Shown here one piece after another: positions 7,485-37,022 of a stretch of DNA of 64,000 bases. Numbering within the stretch: position 1 is the stretch's first letter; each line of letters begins with the position of its first letter. A model generated the notes under the pieces. The model was given only the letters and a program-made list of their open reading frames with translations, was not told the origin of the DNA and did not search any database. Position numbers and translations under genes: made by a program. This DNA is from Bacteroidales bacterium UBA1205. GTDB taxonomy: Bacteria; Bacteroidota; Bacteroidia; Bacteroidales; WCHB1-69. The stretch lies in assembly GCA_002309615.1 (NCBI GenBank), contig DBXT01000042.1, forward strand, positions 2,154-66,153, written 5' to 3'.

Positions 7485-8252
7485 ATGAACTTTATAGACA
7501 CGCATTCTCATTTATACGATACCGCATTTGACCAAGACAGGAACAGCATAATAACCGAATGCAAACAAGCGGGAGTAAACACCTTATTGCTTCCTAACAT
7601 CAATAAGGAAAGCATTCCCGCCATGCTTCAATTATGTCACACCTATCCGGAGATGTGTTATCCTATGATAGGCTTGCATCCTTGTGATGTAAAAAGCGAC
7701 TATAAAGAGGTATTGCAAAGCATGTTTGCCTTATCGGACCAATATCCGTTTATTGCAATAGGCGAAATAGGCATAGACTTATATTGGGATTCCTCCCTGC
7801 TTGCAGAGCAAAAAGATGCTTTCGCCATGCAGGTGGATTTCGCCGTTCGGCACCGACTTCCCATTGTCATTCACAAACGACAATCTTATTACGAAGTAAT
7901 AGATGTGCTGAAACAATTCAAGGGACAAAAATTAAAAGGTATTTTTCACTGTTGGTCCGGAAGTTTAGACCACGCACTTGCAGTTATTTCCATGGGTTTT
8001 CATTTAGGAATAGGAGGAACTGTCACCTATAAAAGCAGCCGCTTGGACGAACTTTTGCCCCATATAGACTTACAGCACATAGTGCTGGAGACCGATAGCC
8101 CCTACCTTACTCCCCATCCCTACCGCGGACAACGGAACAAAAGTAGTTATATTCCTATTATAGCACAAAAAATAGCCGAGATTAAACATTGCGATATTGC
8201 TACCATAGCAAACATTACCACCGAAAATGCAAAAAAACTTTTCAATATATAA
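7485..8252 (+). CDS. TatD-family metal-dependent hydrolase/DNase
   Basis: It starts 'MNFIDTHSHLYD' (HxH metal site) and also has 'GEIGIDLYW' and 'ETDSPYLTP'. The ATG at 7485 is preferred over the GTG at 7458, which lies inside the terminator. Confidence 0.88.
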   Translation: MNFIDTHSHLYDTAFDQDRNSIITECKQAGVNTLLLPNINKESIPAMLQLCHTYPEMCYPMIGLHPCDVKSDYKEVLQSMFALSDQYPFIAIGEIGIDLYWDSSLLAEQKDAFAMQVDFAVRHRLPIVIHKRQSYYEVIDVLKQFKGQKLKGIFHCWSGSLDHALAVISMGFHLGIGGTVTYKSSRLDELLPHIDLQHIVLETDSPYLTPHPYRGQRNKSSYIPIIAQKIAEIKHCDIATIANITTENAKKLFNI

Positions 8253-31542: not shown

Positions 31543-31574
31543 CATATTTTTTTGATTAGAATGTTTTTTTTTTG

Positions 31575-31582
31575 TACCTTTG
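31575..31582 (+). promoter_or_regulatory. -7 promoter box TACCTTTG for the ATPase gene
   Basis: TACCTTTG lies 27 nt upstream of ATG 31609. Confidence 0.5.
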
Positions 31583-31608
31583 CATCCGTATTCATCAAAT
31601 TATCTATT

Positions 31609-32739
31609 ATGGATTTACTTAACAGAACTCTTCAGCAAGTTATTGAAAATAGAATATTTAAAGGTAAAGCCATAGTGCTTGTCGGTGCGAGACAAGTTGG
31701 CAAAAGCACTCTTTTCCGTCAGATTTTATCCTCCTGTCATGATATACTGACCTTAAACTGCGACGATATAGAAACCCGCAATCTGCTTGAAAATGCCAAT
31801 TTGAGCGAATTGCAACGACTTGTCGGTTCACATACTATAGTTATGATTGATGAAGCTCAACGACTAAAAGGAGCCGGACTTACCATGAAACTTATTACCG
31901 ACAATATGCCCGATGTTCAGTTGCTCATCACAGGATCATCATCTTTTATGCTTCAAGGCAGTCTTAACGAGCCGCTTACCGGTCGCAAATTTGAATATCA
32001 TCTATTTCCATTTTCCACCCAAGAGATAAACGATAATCTCGGATATTTGCGTACCCGTCAACTGTTGGAATCCCGACTTATATTCGGCTCCTATCCGGAT
32101 GTTATTAATCATATTGCGGATAGTGCAGATATTTTATCCAACCTTTCAAGCAGTTACATGTATCAGGATTTGCTCTCATTGGAAGGAATACGCAAACCCG
32201 TGATTATTGAAAAATTGTTGATAGCCTTAGCTTTGCAATTGGGTAATGAAGTATCATACTACGAACTTTCAAAAACCGTCGGGTCGGATGTAAAAACCAT
32301 TGAGAAATATGTTGACCTGCTTGAAAAATGCTATATAATATTCCGCCTGCCCGCTCTGAATCGGAATATGCGTTCAGAACTCAAAAAAGGAAAAAAAATA
32401 TTTTTCTACGATAACGGCATCCGCAATTCCATCATACATAACCTCAATCCGCTCTCCCTACGAAACGATATAGGGGCATTGTGGGAAAATTTTATTGTAA
32501 GCGAAAGAATAAAATATAATCACTATCGCGGACATCATGTAAACTATTATTTCTGGAGAACAACCACACAACAAGAAATAGACTTTATTGAAGAAAGTGG
32601 CGGCGAATTCCAACTTTTTGAGATGAAATGGAACCCCAAGAAAACTCTTGTACAAGCTCCACGGGAATTTACAAAAGCATATGGAGAAATGCCCTTTGCA
32701 ACCATCACTCCTGACAATTACCTTGATTTTCTGACATAA
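31609..32739 (+). CDS. AAA-ATPase with a C-terminal DUF4143/PD-(D/E)xK-like domain (COG1373-type)
   Basis: Walker A 'GARQVGKST', Walker B 'VMIDEAQ', and C-terminal 'QQEIDFIEE...LFEMKW' (D..ExK-like). The start MDLLNR at 31609 lies downstream of the promoter box. Confidence 0.8.
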   Translation: MDLLNRTLQQVIENRIFKGKAIVLVGARQVGKSTLFRQILSSCHDILTLNCDDIETRNLLENANLSELQRLVGSHTIVMIDEAQRLKGAGLTMKLITDNMPDVQLLITGSSSFMLQGSLNEPLTGRKFEYHLFPFSTQEINDNLGYLRTRQLLESRLIFGSYPDVINHIADSADILSNLSSSYMYQDLLSLEGIRKPVIIEKLLIALALQLGNEVSYYELSKTVGSDVKTIEKYVDLLEKCYIIFRLPALNRNMRSELKKGKKIFFYDNGIRNSIIHNLNPLSLRNDIGALWENFIVSERIKYNHYRGHHVNYYFWRTTTQQEIDFIEESGGEFQLFEMKWNPKKTLVQAPREFTKAYGEMPFATITPDNYLDFLT

Positions 32740-33159: not shown

Positions 33160-33192
33160 AGTTAATAAAATAGTGTGCCGGAGGCACACTAT
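33160..33192 (-). terminator. Putative terminator of the protease-RT operon
   Basis: A perfect 10 bp stem ATAGTGTGCC/GGCACACTAT (33170-33179 / 33183-33192) with loop GGA. On the minus strand it is followed by TTTATTAAC. Confidence 0.55.
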
Positions 33193-33208
33193 TTCGCTTA
33201 TCTTATTA

Positions 33209-33309: not shown

Positions 33310-34992
33310 TCACACATATCTACTAAAGTTCTCAACTTCGTGATATTCAATATACTCAGTCAACCTATTAATTTCGTCTTCATTAATACAAGAGTTGTCC
33401 GGATTTTGAAATATATTCTTAATATCTTCTTTTAACCAATCAATGTTCCAGATACTTTCGTTTGCATTTGCAGCATATTGGCATAAAGGTTCTGAAAATT
33501 CTTTATTGCGGTTTTCTTTAATAGTCAATCTTTGTAGCCATATTTCCAAATAACCCACATTAGGTAGCTGATCAAATTTTTTCAAGATTTTCTCAATTAC
33601 TTCTTTTTTCTTATTAGTATCTGGCTCTTGTGATAAAATCTTGCTTACGATAGCAACGAATGTTTTGTATACCTTTGGATTATTGAAAGCAATATTTGTT
33701 AATATACTAATTAAGACATCTGAAGAACCGAATTCTTTATATAAATCCAATTTTTCTGTTTCTGAAATCCATTTGAAGAACAAATCCATTGATTTTTGAA
33801 CAGAACCTGAGTTCGGGTATTCTTGTGCTAATCTGTTTATACGCAACAGATGTTTCTGTAAACTATATTTGTTATCTTTTTTTTCTAAATCCTTGTAGCC
33901 ATTCGTAATATAATACAATTTGTCAGGCTTGATTGCTCCGTTTATTATATCCTGAGTTATCATTGTTTTCTGAGTGTTGAGTCTAAAATTCAAACTTGAC
34001 AAAACCTCCGTTAAGATTTTAGCAATTTTAATGACGTCCTCTTGCGAGTTTCCAAAAATGCGATAATCATCACGATAACGTAAAATTCGGTAGTCTGATA
34101 TTTTTGCCTTAAAAATCTTTTCAGATAACAACAAATCAGCATAACCCAACACTATTTCTGCAATAAAATCCATTAAAACACTGCCTTGAGGGATGCCATT
34201 AGTTTGTTGATATGACATGGATTGTATACGTGAATCAATAATATCACCTACTGTATATCGGTTCTTAACTTGTTGTAAATAAATAATAGCTTCACTACTT
34301 CCATCTAAAAATTTAGTATTACAAACACTTAGCAACTCAGCATTTAGTTCAACTTCTTTATTTTTATTTCTGTATTTATGTTTAATTTTTGCATTCTCTT
34401 TTCCACACATTGCCCATGTTATAGAGTGTGTATAAATCGATCCATAACAATCTGTTATGTCGGTTGTTATTAGATAATTGAAATTCATAGCCAACTTTAT
34501 GGATTGCTGTTCAATTTCCTCCCACCAATTTAGAATCGTATTTGTACTATTTTTCTGTTTCGACAAATTAATAATAGGTAAACTATAGCATTTAATTTTA
34601 TCGTTTTTTGCAAACTCCTGAAACCTTTCAACTATCAATGCCCAATTATCTTCTTTTGTAATTTCATTGACTAAATAAACATATAGTACTGGGTTAATAA
34701 TTTGCAAAGGACGCCACGAAAATCGTCCATCTTTATTTTGAAAGAAATGATAATTGACGTTTTCAATTGTCTTAGGTTCTACATCCAAAATATCGCTTTT
34801 TTGTGTTTTATTTTCTTTATACTTATATCTCTTGCATACAAGGAAACTTGTCAATTCGTTTAACAATTTTTGAAAATCAAAATATTTAGGCAAGCAGATA
34901 TTACAAAACGATTCTTGTCTCAAAAAAAAATGTTTTGCTTCTTCTGCTGAAGCATCAATGATAAAAGTATTCATAAATCTTTTTTCTATCAA
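33310..34992 (-). CDS. Reverse transcriptase, AbiK/Abi-P2/UG-like, with a ~215 aa helical C-terminal domain
   Basis: RT motif A is 'ITTDITDCYGSIYTHSITW' (aa 175-193), motif B 'NGIPQGSVLMDFIAEIVLG' (aa 265-283), motif C 'RYRDDYRIFG' (YRDD = nt 34066-34077) and motif D/E 'LNFRLNTQKT'. The track start at 34992 is TTG. The first ATG is at 34974 (MNTFIID). Confidence 0.85.
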   Translation of the reverse strand: MIEKRFMNTFIIDASAEEAKHFFLRQESFCNICLPKYFDFQKLLNELTSFLVCKRYKYKENKTQKSDILDVEPKTIENVNYHFFQNKDGRFSWRPLQIINPVLYVYLVNEITKEDNWALIVERFQEFAKNDKIKCYSLPIINLSKQKNSTNTILNWWEEIEQQSIKLAMNFNYLITTDITDCYGSIYTHSITWAMCGKENAKIKHKYRNKNKEVELNAELLSVCNTKFLDGSSEAIIYLQQVKNRYTVGDIIDSRIQSMSYQQTNGIPQGSVLMDFIAEIVLGYADLLLSEKIFKAKISDYRILRYRDDYRIFGNSQEDVIKIAKILTEVLSSLNFRLNTQKTMITQDIINGAIKPDKLYYITNGYKDLEKKDNKYSLQKHLLRINRLAQEYPNSGSVQKSMDLFFKWISETEKLDLYKEFGSSDVLISILTNIAFNNPKVYKTFVAIVSKILSQEPDTNKKKEVIEKILKKFDQLPNVGYLEIWLQRLTIKENRNKEFSEPLCQYAANANESIWNIDWLKEDIKNIFQNPDNSCINEDEINRLTEYIEYHEVENFSRYV

Positions 34993-34995
34993 ATA

Positions 34996-36618
34996 TTATT
35001 TCTTCAATTCTATCTCATAAAAACACCATCCACCCTCTACAGTTTCTCTTAAATTCATTTCAGTTGTAGCGAACGGAATAGGAGGAAAGTATAATGTGAA
35101 TGTTATATCTTCTCCATTAGAGAAAAAATATGTTTTTTGCGGAGCTATTGCTATTCCTTCTGCTTTTGTCATTGTATACGCTCTCCCATTAACAGATAGA
35201 TAAGTATTCTTATCAATATAGCAATAATCAGCGTAAGAATCACCTATTTTATTATTGGCAATAATCTCAACTGCTGTATATTCTTTTTTCAAAGTAACAC
35301 TTTTGATTTTTGTATTTTCTGCCGATGCCGATTTAGTTCTTACCGTGGGCCAATATATTGTATTGGAAGAATTTACATTGGGCGATACACTTCGCTCATT
35401 GTAAGATGATTGTGTTGAAGAATTAGCGGACGTTGATTGATTAGAACACTTAATCAAAAAAACAAAGTTTTTTAAACTTTTGACTTTGTCGCTTAATTTC
35501 ATTCCGGAAACTGTATTGTTTGTTGGCAGTACGGATGTTAACGATGCACTTTCCACAAGATTTCTCAACAAAGAAGTTTTAATTGCATAACCGACATTTT
35601 CCGCTCCAATATGTTTAGCATTGACAATGCCTATAAGATTGCCATTATTATCAAAGAGAGGACCACCACTATTTCCCGGCTGTACAGGTGCTGAAATTTG
35701 ATACAAAGATGCATCTCCCTGAAAACCTGTTTTGGAGCTTATCACACCTGTGGTAAGTTTTATTTCATCTCCCATGGTACTTGTCAAAGGATAACCCAAA
35801 ACAAATATTTCTTCTCCGACTTCAGATGTACTTGTTTTTATTTTGTATGGTAATGTTCCGAATCCTTTAAATCTGTTATCGTTTATTTTTAATATTGCCA
35901 AGTCATTTATTTTGTCCGTAGCTACAACTGATGCCGAATATGAAACATCAAAATTTCCGTTTACACCATTAATGTTGATAGATTTAGCATCTTCTACAAC
36001 ATGGTAATTTGTTACAATGTAACCATTGTTTAATGCAAATCCTGTTCCTGACCAATTTTCAATTTTTGACTCTTCCTCTCTTTCTTTAATTTCTCTTTCA
36101 GCTTGCCAATACATTTCTTTTGTAGGATAGGTTTTTATTAATTTATAGTGCAATATACATTTTGCTGATGCTGCAGCATCTCTTCCCATAGATTTAGCAA
36201 GAGCTTCTTTCGGTATGTTCAATTTAAAATCTAACGTTGTTCCGTTGTACAATGTAACCCATTCTTCCATAGAGTAATCCTTAAAGGTTTGTGTAAATCT
36301 ATATTGGTTAGATTCTCCGATTCTTGAAAAAATAGCTGCTCCTCCATCTTGACCTCCAATAGCATATCTATTATTGCCTATTTTTTGAATAAAAATAGTT
36401 TCAAAAGTATTATTAGGAGGGAAAGCCCTACCGAGAGCAAAAACTTGACTAGACATAGACATTTCATACACCCCTTCAATTGGATCTAATGAGCTGATAT
36501 TATTTTTGAAATATTCTTTTGCTCTAATCAGATCTGTTCTAGTTTGTCCCATTACACTTGCAACAACACACATTAAAAGTATGCACATACATAATTTGGA
36601 AATTCTATTTGTTTTCAT
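34996..36618 (-). CDS. Exported trypsin-like (S1/Trypsin_2-type) serine protease with unknown N- and C-terminal domains
   Basis: The signal peptide is MKTNRISKLCMCILLMCVVASVMGQ. The catalytic triad context is 'TNYHVV' (His206), 'INDLAILKI' (Asp239) and 'GNSGGPLF' (Ser317). An S/N/T-rich linker spans aa ~391-420. The stop lies 3 nt (TTG start) or 21 nt (ATG start) before the RT start. Confidence 0.85.
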   Translation of the reverse strand: MKTNRISKLCMCILLMCVVASVMGQTRTDLIRAKEYFKNNISSLDPIEGVYEMSMSSQVFALGRAFPPNNTFETIFIQKIGNNRYAIGGQDGGAAIFSRIGESNQYRFTQTFKDYSMEEWVTLYNGTTLDFKLNIPKEALAKSMGRDAAASAKCILHYKLIKTYPTKEMYWQAEREIKEREEESKIENWSGTGFALNNGYIVTNYHVVEDAKSININGVNGNFDVSYSASVVATDKINDLAILKINDNRFKGFGTLPYKIKTSTSEVGEEIFVLGYPLTSTMGDEIKLTTGVISSKTGFQGDASLYQISAPVQPGNSGGPLFDNNGNLIGIVNAKHIGAENVGYAIKTSLLRNLVESASLTSVLPTNNTVSGMKLSDKVKSLKNFVFLIKCSNQSTSANSSTQSSYNERSVSPNVNSSNTIYWPTVRTKSASAENTKIKSVTLKKEYTAVEIIANNKIGDSYADYCYIDKNTYLSVNGRAYTMTKAEGIAIAPQKTYFFSNGEDITFTLYFPPIPFATTEMNLRETVEGGWCFYEIELKK

Positions 36619-36649
36619 AAATCTATATTTGATATGTTAACATTTATTC

Positions 36650-36675
36650 ACTTCGCCCGATTCCCAAAGACGAAC
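36650..36675. repeat. Cassette-flanking imperfect direct repeat, copy B
   Basis: See copy A. This copy lies 31 nt upstream of the protease ATG. Confidence 0.5.
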
Positions 36676-36701
36676 AAAACAAAAAACACTCAAAACCACA
36701 T

Positions 36702-36741
36702 AAAAAAAAGCGCGGGAATCAGAACTTTTGCTCATCCCGCG
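36702..36741 (-). terminator. Intrinsic terminator/attenuator-like hairpin at the 3' end of the structured RNA
   Basis: The minus strand reads CGCGGGA-U-GAGC-AAAA-GUUC-UGA-UCCCGCG-C-UUUUUUUU. The outer stem is 7 bp, the inner stem 4 bp, and a U8 tract follows. Confidence 0.6.
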
Positions 36742-37010
36742 TACAAGGTCTTCGCATTACCTACCAACCGAGGATAAGCAATGCCGAAGCCCACGCTGTA
36801 CGTATAAACGGATTTTAGGACATCCGCTATATAAAGACGCTATTCAATAGTGCCTTTCATATACAATACCATGGACACTGATCATTGCCTTACCGTGCGG
36901 TTGGTGTAGAATTTGCGAAGTTCTGTACGCCGCAGATAAAACGTCAGTTCAACGTCTTTTCTATGTTTTGTCGTCCACCCGCAAACCCGTCAAGGCTTCG
37001 GATGTTTGAC
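36702..37010 (-). ncRNA. Candidate ~300 nt structured non-coding RNA, or structured leader of the protease-RT operon; family unknown
   Basis: No ORF is present and GC is higher than in the neighbouring DNA. It has a -7 box at its 5' side and a hairpin plus U-tract at its 3' side. Long-range complementarities are 36750-36756/36914-36920 (7 bp), 36763-36770/36898-36905 (8 bp) and 36784-36791/36994-37001 (8 bp), with several local hairpins. The 5' boundary is approximate. Confidence 0.5.
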
Positions 37011-37014
37011 ACTG

Positions 37015-37022
37015 CAAAAGTA
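37015..37022 (-). promoter_or_regulatory. -7 promoter box (TACTTTTG on the minus strand) for the structured RNA/operon
   Basis: The plus strand reads CAAAAGTA. A TTTG lies upstream on the minus strand at 37052-37049, which is longer than ideal spacing. No other TAnnTTTG was found between here and the protease ATG. Confidence 0.4.

Follow-up and report, generated by a model that had tools for sequence, protein, structure and literature searches.

A predicted exported HtrA-like protease heads a mobile Bacteroidales cassette whose second gene, here an Abi-P2 polymerase, is interchangeable

The window analyzed here is a stretch of 64,000 nucleotides from Bacteroidales bacterium UBA1205 (contig DBXT01000042.1 of assembly GCA_002309615.1), on the minus strand of which a predicted exported trypsin-like protease is directly followed by a reverse transcriptase (RT) of the Abi-P2 type. 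The pairing is genuine, yet it is not specific to the RT: the protease heads a cassette with interchangeable cytoplasmic anti-phage genes. In the reading that we prefer, with a probability of roughly 0.55, the exported protease would be the constant first gene of a mobile cassette, and its swappable immunity partners would act in the cytoplasm, a separate compartment. Protease and partner genes are co-inherited. No description of this cassette or of this protease–RT pairing was found in the literature.

The protease open reading frame (36618..34996, minus strand) is intact, with an ATG start and a TAA stop, and encodes 540 residues in four parts, all read from the minus strand. A Sec signal peptide (residues 1–24, MKTNRISKLCMCILLMCVVASVMG / Q; 36547..36618) is followed by a hypervariable beta-barrel N-domain (residues 25–186; 36061..36546) and an HtrA-like S1C serine protease domain (residues 187–392; 35443..36060), which a Ser/Asn/Thr-rich linker (residues 393–420; 35359..35442) connects to a C-terminal beta-sandwich domain (residues 421–540 and the stop codon; 34996..35358). 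The translation and the AF2 models thus bear out the original prediction of a three-domain protein with a signal, an N-domain of ~160 aa, an S/N/T-rich linker and a beta-rich C-domain of ~120 aa. Pfam matched Trypsin_2 at residues 191–331 (E 2.7e-28) and Trypsin at residues 169–349 (E 6e-18), and NCBIfam gave sub-threshold HtrA/DegS/MarP-type matches that cover the protease domain alone. The trypsin-like triad that had been read from the sequence was confirmed in its contexts TNYHVV (H206; codon 36001-36003), NDLAIL (D239; 35902-35904) and GNSGGP (S317; 35668-35670), and none of the three varies in alignments of 8 and of 25 homologues. With His, Asp and Ser in this order in a chymotrypsin-fold domain, the protein falls into peptidase family S1, subfamily S1C. 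Foldseek matched the protease domain to DegS, HtrA and Rv3671c at probability 1.0, the model being poor in that part (pLDDT < 50 for residues 256–416 of the whole-protein AF2 model). The full model returned little beyond HtrA/DegS-type proteases, with one marginal match of a designed beta-barrel to the N-domain. Matches to RT-Protease_XI, LmuA and Avs1b were not taken to define a specific 'defence' type of protease, since generic HtrA models score equally.

The two flanking domains differ in character. The N-domain (~residues 26–186) is modeled as a helix and an antiparallel beta-barrel, with pLDDT values of 80–90 over residues 30–180. Among family members at the fetched loci it is hypervariable, with 17–28% identity vs 54–86% in the protease core, and a conserved motif, LDPIEGxY, lies inside this otherwise hypervariable domain. 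A Pfam search and a PDB profile search found no relative of it. The linker has a pLDDT below 50 and varies in both length and sequence in the alignment. The C-domain is a conserved beta-sandwich (AF2 pLDDT 93.4, pTM 0.88), for which Foldseek searches of PDB and viral structures returned the generic beta-sandwiches FlaG, CBM21, MPT63 and DUF4352, all at TM <= ~0.5; it was assigned to none of them. A profile search of the C-domain against PDB sequences gave nothing significant, and sequence hints of Mfa4_C/PG49 (E 0.003–0.1) were too weak for use.

By inspection, the N-terminus of the protease consists of MKTNR, a hydrophobic stretch of ~15 residues and SVMG/Q, which places V at −3, G at −1 and Q at +1 of the predicted cleavage site, behind a short h-region. 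A signal peptidase I (SPI) pattern with Q at +1, the Q-rule, is typical of Bacteroidetes (PMC5837995, PMC10653852), and its elements (n-, h- and c-regions, small residues at −3 and −1, Gln at +1) are present here. In a crude signal scan, 52 of 64 ORFs had such an N-terminus, 49 of these 52 with a small residue and then Q at the expected distance; the 12 remaining ORFs are mostly 5'-truncated. The pattern is not that of a lipoprotein (SPII), in that the Cys residues of the h-region are preceded by K-L and L-M, neither of which forms a lipobox ([LVI][ASTVI][GAS]C); these Cys residues are not conserved among homologues. NCBIfam and Pfam gave no match at E up to 0.1 to a Por secretion tail (TIGR04183-type CTD) of type IX secretion (T9SS) cargo. 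Bacteroides and Phocaeicola, in which the protease family is common, generally lack a T9SS. From the signal peptide with its Q-rule context, the beta-barrel N-domain and the Ig-like C-domain, we infer that the protease is secreted, being Sec-exported and processed by signal peptidase I at the predicted site; the weak fold matches of the C-domain are mostly to extracytoplasmic proteins.

The original prediction had also offered an uncleaved membrane anchor, which would tether the protease to the inner membrane, where it could cooperate with the RT. Some HtrA-family proteases, e.g., DegS, are indeed membrane-anchored, and NCBIfam has DegS-like matches to the protease domain. Such an anchor is nonetheless very improbable here: the h-region is only ~15 residues long, the small-residue/Q context is kept in the 49 members noted above despite otherwise unrelated signal sequences and is an SPI signature in Bacteroidetes (PMC5837995), and an anchored form would still have its catalytic domain on the periplasmic side. 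Of the explanations originally considered, action of protease and RT in different compartments is the best-supported.

The RT gene (34974 or 34992..33310, minus strand) starts 3–21 nt downstream of the protease and encodes 554 aa from an ATG at 34974, with the frame open from a TTG at 34992. Its product is an Abi-P2-type reverse transcriptase/DNA polymerase, matching the PADLOC AbiP2 profile (PDLC03744) at E 3.7e-181 and PDB 7R08 at E 7.4e-82, the latter over residues 243–521 and a second stretch; the profile match, the RT motifs (RYRDD in the translation) and a helical C-terminal domain together place it in the family. As had been expected, the RT carries no signal peptide. The RT of locus L076, at the same chromosomal site, shares 91% identity with it.

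Pattern searches point to a single transcription unit. A Bacteroidetes-type −7 promoter box, TACTTTTG, lies at 37015..37022 on the minus strand and is likely the operon promoter. The only other minus-strand −7 box before 32977 is at 36402–36409, early in the protease ORF; between 36402 and the RT start the search found none, which leaves the RT with no promoter box of its own. The 5' leader (36640..37014, minus strand) comprises a predicted structured RNA at ~36702–37022 and, before the protease ATG, a hairpin followed by a T-run (CGCGGGA..TCCCGCG, TTTTTTTT; ~36700–36745, minus strand). The same leader precedes the protease–SIR2 cassettes of loci L001–L004 (nhmmer, E 1e-56) and is also found by nhmmer at L051, L088 and L093, and an Rfam scan of 31–38.5 kb gave no match at E up to 1, either to the leader or elsewhere. 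Past the RT stop, a GC-rich hairpin with a 12-bp stem (33168..33194, minus strand) resembles a terminator and is likely that of the operon. Given the 3–21-nt gap and the absence of a −7 box before the RT, protease and RT are predicted to be co-transcribed from one leader-controlled promoter. Convergent with the operon lies a gene for an AAA_14/DUF4143 ATPase (Pfam; PDC-S01-like; 31552..32739, plus strand), a gene type that also adjoins cassettes at L001, L089 and L020 and makes up 3 of 147 neighboring ORFs.

An Abi-P2 RT stands beside a family protease in at least four arrangements that are separated on the RT tree. The order is protease→RT in the window and at L076 and L077, it is reversed at L089 and L070, and L103 and L107 have protease–TPR→RT with a gap of 0 nt; across the RT cases, intergenic gaps range from 0 to 143 nt. 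RT identity is 44–100% between protease-linked RT lineages. Gaps of 0–2 nt, and an association that persists through order reversal and between distant RT lineages, are what one classically expects of selection for functional linkage and not of mere co-travel. Chance adjacency of two unrelated genes, the fortuitous pairing raised at the outset, is effectively refuted, even though most Abi-P2 genes and most family proteases occur without each other. At least four separate arrangements among ~90 RT loci stand against it, as do the shared low-GC island, the short gap and single promoter, and a pairing that is kept in related genomes at 87–91% RT identity.

The view of the protease as an RT-coupled effector, as had been proposed, is not supported either. 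The protease is present at only ~7 of the ~90 Abi-P2 loci, with ~80 lacking it, and genes of its family are much more often followed by a SIR2-like, TIR-like, DUF2971 or other gene, or by none. L088 carries a near-identical sister of the protease-linked RT of L089 and has no protease within 6 kb. In the same RT clade, the RT ends unrelated operons, behind two radical-SAM genes at L088 and behind TonB_C and a 181-aa gene at L079. Searches of whole genomes across the order, one for the RT and one for the SIR2-like partner, gave three matches each, in an even sampling of ~150 families that is too sparse for co-occurrence analysis.

The protease family is large and accessory, amounts to thousands of clusters in a protein search, is confined to Bacteroidales and almost always has an export signal. 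Its members often head a mobile cassette of ~4 kb, consisting of leader RNA, protease and partner, in gut and rumen Bacteroidales. The cassette partner is usually SIR2-like and otherwise TIR-like, DUF2971, of undefined type or an Abi-P2 RT. Five of six protease clusters examined precede a SIR2-like gene with a gap of 2 nt; downstream of the sixth lies a 374-aa gene without an assigned type, together with ~60 nt remaining of a SIR2 5' end, which implies gene replacement at the second slot. At 65 species-level genome loci, the gene adjoining the protease is SIR2-like in four, DUF2971/PDC-S31 in three, TIR-like in three and of a 372-aa type in three, with others or none elsewhere, in proportions biased by the collection of loci via the protease or via the RT; many family proteases have no close downstream gene. 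Families recurring among 147 flanking ORFs are Mob_Pre (6), DUF2971 (6), SIR2 (4) and DUF4143/PDC-S01 (3), and further PD-T4-4/AriA, TIR, AbiLi, caspase and AbiP2, where the PADLOC PDC-S families are candidate, not proven, defence genes. What occupies the second slot seems to be limited to enzymes of an immune type. The original prediction would have been weakened if homologues usually lacked an RT neighbor and looked like housekeeping proteases. The former is true and the latter is not: the protease is mobile, low in GC, accessory and enriched beside defence-type genes, and a separate HtrA-type gene exists elsewhere in the same genome.

These neighborhoods bear on whether the protease has any immune role. 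It might be an ordinary accessory envelope or nutritional enzyme without one, whose 3' end and strong, regulated promoter attract promoter-less, stand-alone defence genes. Some family members do sit in all-exported operons (protease, exported caspase and PPC lipoprotein at L038 and L045) or adjoin surface proteins, the RT is likewise the last gene behind the unrelated operons of L088 and L079, and the SIR2 remnant indicates gene replacement at the slot. We regard this explanation as unlikely; it leaves unexplained the RT→protease order at L089 and L070, the presence of a hypervariable N-domain next to a catalytic core that hardly varies, and the excess of defence-type genes flanking the protease on either side. 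A point that speaks against our own preferred reading is that all SIR2-like genes seen lie behind a gene for an exported protein, among them an unrelated one of 491 aa; this hints at a rule of 'exported protein plus cytoplasmic NADase-type enzyme' that simple hitch-hiking does not predict. A transglutaminase-like identity of this 491-aa protein (P0369), suggested by a Cys...His...Asp pattern, gained no tool support and is a lead only.

Identical cassettes occur in differing chromosomal contexts. A tRNA gene borders one cassette end, and the opposite end meets the tail of an ORF lying upstream, taken for a putative mob (relaxase) gene; at L180, an intact DUF5906–Toprim–Mob_Pre backbone lies upstream of the cassette. 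The GC content is 0.28–0.35 in the cassette vs 0.40–0.48 in the flanks. In the window, positions 36640–35741, which include the N-domain, are ~100% identical to the L001 protease–SIR2 cassette, and positions 35440–34961 follow the L076 protease–RT cassette. Judged by these identities, the window cassette is a recombinant, with a 5' half from the protease–SIR2 type and a 3' part from the protease–RT type. Such a mosaic implies that SIR2 and RT partners are served by the same N-domain; the protease next to the 91%-identical RT at L076 has another one. An empty-site comparison with the four genomes of the same family failed, at 66–73% DNA identity and with synteny broken.

The evidence on protease and partner includes cassette-level co-transfer and tight gaps, and also lone proteases, lone Abi-P2 genes and swapping of N-domains and partners. 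Because many proteases have no Abi-P2 neighbor and most Abi-P2 genes have no protease, independent modules are favored, and we propose a plausible scheme on this basis. Low-GC cassettes of ~4 kb, ordered as promoter, structured leader, protease and second gene, would ride in Bacteroidales as cargo of integrative mobilizable elements and exchange parts through homologous recombination within the highly conserved protease core; the window copy would be one such recombinant. The second slot would hold cytoplasmic immunity genes that can replace one another and whose kinds are also found on their own, in the window lineage the Abi-P2 polymerase. The protease would work in the periplasm or beyond, and the two proteins would act in separate compartments without mutual contact. 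To judge from the Abi-P2 family, the RT would be a cytoplasmic, self-sufficient, protein-primed and template-independent DNA polymerase that aborts phage infection. The weakest step concerns the protease, which may act in the envelope as a first-line barrier to proteins of phages or rival elements, its hypervariable N-domain being the putative recognition part; the anti-phage role of the protease is purely inferred.

The same evidence can be read as a two-component immune system, in which the exported protease, or its unexported precursor, belongs to the same pathway as the cytoplasmic partner. In one version, a collapse of Sec export or of the membrane potential upon phage infection would let precursor protease accumulate in the cytoplasm and activate the RT, SIR2 or TIR effector; in another, the protease would supply an envelope-level signal. 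This reading, which deserves serious though clearly lesser credence, would account for the translational-coupling gaps of 0–2 nt in many cassettes, for an RT–protease adjacency that requires four or more changes on the RT tree and is kept when the gene order is reversed, for the movement of leader, protease and partner as a single piece, for the constant position of the SIR2-like family behind an exported protein, even an unrelated one, and for partner types that are effector-like enzymes. However, a cleaved protease and partners without a membrane span offer no evident signal route across the inner membrane, and one N-domain goes with SIR2 or RT, as one RT does with different N-domains. Abi-P2 works alone in other hosts (PMC9226505), the near-identical RT of L088 has no nearby protease, many proteases are partnerless, and the gaps in the RT cases vary. 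A more specific and rather improbable form would make the signal-bearing protease and its cytoplasmic enzyme (SIR2-like, TIR-like, DUF2971 or Abi-P2 RT) one abortive-infection switch that monitors export. Running Sec export would clear the protease from the cytoplasm, and a phage that depolarizes the membrane or blocks export would cause precursor to build up, which would proteolytically unleash the partner. Infection would in this way be sensed as a breakdown of protein secretion, and the finding of unrelated exported proteins ahead of one SIR2-like family in Bacteroidales would be accounted for.

The Bacteroidales of gut and rumen rank with the most abundant bacteria of animals, yet their anti-phage repertoire is poorly charted. 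The cassette is widespread in them and joins a diversifying secreted protease, by inheritance and probably by transcription, to swappable cytoplasmic immune enzymes. With independent modules, it would constitute a compact two-layer (envelope and cytoplasm) defence cargo, a natural recombination scaffold for immune-gene exchange and a tool for guilt by association, by which the 372-aa, 253-aa and HExxH partners are candidate defence genes. Coupled modules would represent a new principle by which infection is sensed. In either case, Abi-P2, so far treated as stand-alone, is accompanied in another phylum by predicted operon partners and a leader RNA.

The catalytic domain, triad and predicted extracytoplasmic location of the window protease, with its Foldseek and HMM similarity, are reminiscent of HtrA, DegP, DegQ and DegS. 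It differs from HtrA proteases proper in having no PDZ match in Pfam, in its hypervariable beta-barrel N-domain and beta-sandwich C-domain, and in being accessory, mobile and low in GC. Its scores of ~100 bits fall far short of the HtrA equivalog cut-offs of 416–756 bits (TIGR02037, 99.5 vs 416; DegS, 69 vs 423). Retron type XI (RT-Protease_XI; PADLOC model match, E 7e-25) likewise combines a trypsin-like protease with a defence RT, as does a UG9 variant with an N-terminal trypsin-like domain and an MBL hydrolase (PMC9226505). In these systems, however, the protease domains are cytoplasmic and fused to the RT, whereas the window protease is a separate, signal-bearing protein that pairs more often with non-RT partners, and the window RT is Abi-P2. 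AbiP2 is the best RT model in PADLOC, and the locus has no Rfam retron RNA and no nearby MBL or PolA gene.

A periplasmic serine protease reportedly affects phage susceptibility in Phocaeicola (bioRxiv 10.64898/2026.09.26.754296). This protein, Dpp11a of Phocaeicola vulgatus (S46, periplasmic/extracellular), resembles the window protease as an exported serine protease of gut Bacteroidales that influences phage infection, reportedly by lowering phage susceptibility (bioRxiv 10.64898/2026.09.26.754296). In contrast to the window protease, it is an unrelated S46 dipeptidyl peptidase encoded by a core gene, with no linked cytoplasmic immune gene reported.

The RT is a clear relative of Abi-P2 (ORF570 of the E. 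coli P2-like prophage P2-EC30, PDB 7R08; Class 1 UG/Abi RT), sharing its RT motifs and long helical C-terminal domain. Abi-P2 is cargo in the defence-gene hotspots of P2 (PMC9226505), and its variable position on mobile DNA in E. coli is mirrored here. Published work presents Abi-P2 as a defence protein that stands alone (PMC9226505), whereas in the window, and in a few other Bacteroidales lineages, its gene is predicted to share a transcript with a structured leader and an exported protease; the host phylum also differs from that of E. coli. P2 phage and P4 satellite hotspots, and the cargo regions of integrative mobilizable elements, resemble the cassettes in that conserved anchor genes flank a slot in which unrelated small defence systems take each other's place; mob, primase and integrase backbones and a tRNA-adjacent end are likewise seen at the cassettes. 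Unlike in those settings, the anchor here is an exported, diversifying protease that is predicted to be co-transcribed with its cargo, and exchange would proceed by recombination inside the protease coding sequence itself.

The protease is encoded on the minus strand by an ORF of 540 aa (36618..34996). Its core matches Trypsin_2 (Pfam; residues 191-331, E 2.7e-28), and NCBIfam matches to HtrA/DegS/MarP are sub-threshold and limited to the protease domain. The triad H206/D239/S317 is invariant in alignments of 8 and 25 homologues, in agreement with the original prediction, whose outline of the flanking regions also held. In the AlphaFold model, its separate N-terminal domain is a helix plus beta-barrel (~residues 30-180, pLDDT 80-90) and its beta-rich C-terminal domain a beta-sandwich (residues 416-540, pLDDT 93); the Ser/Asn/Thr-rich linker (residues 393-420) is disordered. 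A separate HtrA-type gene, with a core 38% identical to that of the protease, lies elsewhere in the window's genome.

The N-terminus, MKTNR-ISKLCMCILLMCVVASVMG followed by Q, combines a short h-region with V at -3, G at -1 and Q at +1, and inspection of this region revealed no lipobox. Gln at +1 is exposed by most Bacteroidetes signal peptidase I substrates (PMC5837995, PMC10653852). The A/Q ending is present in 7/7 homologues despite unrelated signal sequences. In a crude scan, 52/64 family ORFs had a signal-like N-terminus, 49 of these 52 with a small residue followed by Q, and those failing were mostly 5'-truncated. From these features we infer that the classical signal or anchor sequence recognized in the original prediction is a signal peptide that is cleaved; an N-terminus retained as a signal anchor, which would tether the protease to the membrane, is very improbable.

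On the minus strand, the reading frame of the downstream RT extends from a TTG at 34992 to 33310, with translation probably starting at an ATG at 34974. Matches to PADLOC (E 3.7e-181) and PDB 7R08 (E 7e-82) identify the RT as an Abi-P2 polymerase, and its translated sequence contains no signal peptide, as originally proposed. The flanking ispG, coaE, gcvH and bamA housekeeping genes have a GC content of 0.40-0.48, the protease-RT pair one of 0.28-0.35. A pattern search located a Bacteroidetes -7 box (TACTTTTG) at 37022-37015 on the minus strand and none on that strand from 36402 to 32977. Because this interval lacks a box and the protease-RT gap is just 3-21 nt, the two genes are likely to be carried on a single transcript; a hairpin lies 3' of the RT (33168-33194). 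In the leader, a 7-bp GC-rich stem (CGCGGGA...TCCCGCG; 36700-36745, minus strand) followed by eight T sits ~90 nt 5' of the protease start codon. This element looks like an attenuator or terminator, and thus operon expression may be conditional. An AAA_14/DUF4143 ATPase (PADLOC candidate PDC-S01; window 31552-32739) recurs beside protease cassettes with differing partners and orientations (L001:6276-7520, L089:5032-6315 and L020:6485-7657).

The closest RTs (L076 and L077; 91% and 87% identity) occupy the same Wzi/GcpE chromosomal site as the window's and are also preceded by a family protease, with a different and longer N-terminal region. At L089 (RT 73% identical) the order is reversed, with the RT, 143 nt, the protease and, as in the window, a convergent DUF4143 ATPase; a Prevotella MAG (L070; RT 58% identical) has the RT, 25 nt and the protease. 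In L103 and L107 (RT 44% identical), a signal-peptide-bearing protease-TPR fusion is followed by the RT with zero gap, and the pair is flanked by DUF3825 and EVE-HNH genes; L103:66-6490, on a metagenome contig, resembles a small defence island. RT-protease adjacency requires at least four changes on a maximum-likelihood RT tree. Recurrence in these several forms contradicts the fortuitous pairing once entertained, and chance adjacency is hardly credible. An obligate RT-protease partnership is hard to reconcile with ~80 further Abi-P2 loci without a protease, among them L088 (none within 6 kb), with an RT nearly identical to its protease-linked sister at L089. In L088 (1456-7596), the RT closes a different operon, in which a copy of the same leader RNA is followed by a radical-SAM/SPASM protein, a 132-aa protein and a radical-SAM-methyltransferase fusion.

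Protein searches returned >6,500 clusters of the protease family, the named ones all from Bacteroides, Phocaeicola and relatives. In alignment, long invariant stretches mark the strongly conserved core and C-domain; mosaicism is confined to the N-terminal region (17-28% identity among members), which includes one or two extra domains in some. Longer members such as P0024 seem to contain a second beta-sandwich-like domain near the N-terminus, since residues ~35-100 are patterned like the C-terminal beta-sandwich (~540-631), both following ...YTA..Y.V.I.....T.V.IEL......W.S.NTYI.... At L056:4491-6711, two diverged exported proteases, whose cores are 40% and 62% identical to that of the window's protease, stand in tandem, 34 nt apart.

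Genomic context was examined for six protease clusters. In five, a ~410-aa SIR2-like protein without a signal peptide lies downstream after a 2-nt gap; in the sixth, a 374-aa protein of unknown type follows, with ~60 nt from the 5' end of the SIR2 gene left between. Such a remnant (~60 nt, MKCDIDLSEEQ...), located between the protease stop and the 372/374-aa gene at L016:2968-3100 and L174:5978-6102, is on sequence grounds a footprint of partner-gene replacement. Among 65 species-level genome loci, which all belong to Bacteroidales-type organisms, the gene next to the protease on the same strand was SIR2-like at four, DUF2971/PDC-S31, TIR-like (CAP12/Pycsar TIR) or of the unknown 372-aa type at three each, a small HExxH protein at two, an unknown 253-aa protein at one, an exported caspase-type protein or lipoproteins at several, and absent at many. 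Pooled flanking ORFs (n=147) most often encoded Mob_Pre relaxase (6), DUF2971 (6), SIR2 (4) and DUF4143/PDC-S01 (3), with PD-T4-4/AriA, TIR, AbiLi, NsnB and caspase at 2 each and AbiP2 at 1. Two operons are all-extracytoplasmic, with no cytoplasmic partner: a short-form protease precedes an exported caspase-type (Peptidase_C14) protein or a PPC-domain lipoprotein (L038:4899-7678, L045:4914-9334). The abundant SIR2-like partner P0366 (45 contigs) is preceded by the 491-aa P0369 instead of the S1 protease. P0369 (L183:2496-3971, also L184-L187) has a Sec signal (..IFA/QD), is unrelated to the S1 protease and follows a Sel1-caspase (Peptidase_C14) protein; towards the C-terminus of P0369, a Cys/His/Asp pattern may mark a transglutaminase-like peptidase.

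The window was compared in 60-nt windows with L001, a protease-SIR2 cassette, and L076, a protease-RT cassette. Positions 36640-35741, comprising the signal peptide, N-domain and first two-thirds of the core, are 98-100% identical to L001 (36040-35741 also at least 93% identical to L076), 35740-35441 are unlike those in either cassette at this level of identity, and 35440-34961 follow L076. The upstream leader matches L001-L004 (E 1e-56). The window's operon is thus a recombinant, in which a 5' module shared with a SIR2 cassette and a 3' module shared with an RT cassette meet inside the conserved core. Independent assortment of the recognition-like N-domain and the partner gene argues against a specific N-domain-partner interaction.

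The cassette unit consists of ~420 nt upstream, the protease, the partner and ~390 nt downstream, and identical cassettes are found at differing chromosomal contexts. In L174 and L175, the right end meets the 3' portion of an opposite-strand tRNA gene (7540-7615 in both), and the left end is the 3' terminus of a preceding ORF, a candidate mob (relaxase) gene; this arrangement resembles the tRNA-proximal cargo end of an NBU-like integrative mobilizable element. A DUF5906-Toprim-Mob_Pre backbone is intact in L180, and an integrase is present in L009. The identical copies at different sites, tRNA-adjacent end, Mob_Pre backbone and integrase identify the cassette as cargo of integrative mobilizable elements. 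That the association is purely a docking-site effect is unlikely.

We favour, at a probability of about 0.55, a reading in which protease and partner are co-inherited, co-transcribed modules working in different compartments. In this reading the RT would do what other Abi-P2 proteins do; Abi-P2 has been described as a stand-alone defence protein (PMC9226505), and a solved structure is available for one member (7R08). The protease's site of action would be outside the cytoplasm, and the protease might itself be a barrier to phage or rival elements, given its hypervariable N-domain, its defence-rich neighbourhood, its location on mobile elements and a precedent in Phocaeicola, where a periplasmic protease affects phage susceptibility (bioRxiv 10.64898/2026.09.26.754296). 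Thus, the separate compartments considered in the original prediction are favoured, but not an effector specific to the RT, given the protease-free Abi-P2 loci and the SIR2-like and other partners. The main rival, genuine functional coupling of protease and partner, is possible though doubtful: gaps of 0-2 nt, adjacency that persists despite reversed gene order and, searching from the SIR2 side, one SIR2-like family following either the protease (P0288) or the unrelated exported 491-aa protein (P0366/P0369) speak for it, but no evident route leads from a soluble, mature protease in the periplasm to a cytoplasmic enzyme. Coupling would therefore need an unexported precursor, as in an export-surveillance idea. 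The protease-partner pattern is widespread, and a novel sensing mechanism is possible.

A literature search found no published description of the protease-partner cassette, which is apparently undescribed. The RT falls within Abi-P2. The protease shares the HtrA-like catalytic domain but, lacking a PDZ domain and scoring well under the cut-offs, it lies outside HtrA/DegP/DegS proper. RT-protease associations are known in retron type XI and a UG9 variant (PMC9226505); these are cytoplasmic fusions with other RTs, so the window locus belongs to neither. The nearest concept is the P2/P4-element defence hotspot, together with the cargo regions of mobilizable elements. In contrast to P2/P4 hotspots, the anchor gene here is an exported, diversifying protease that is predicted to be transcribed with its cargo.
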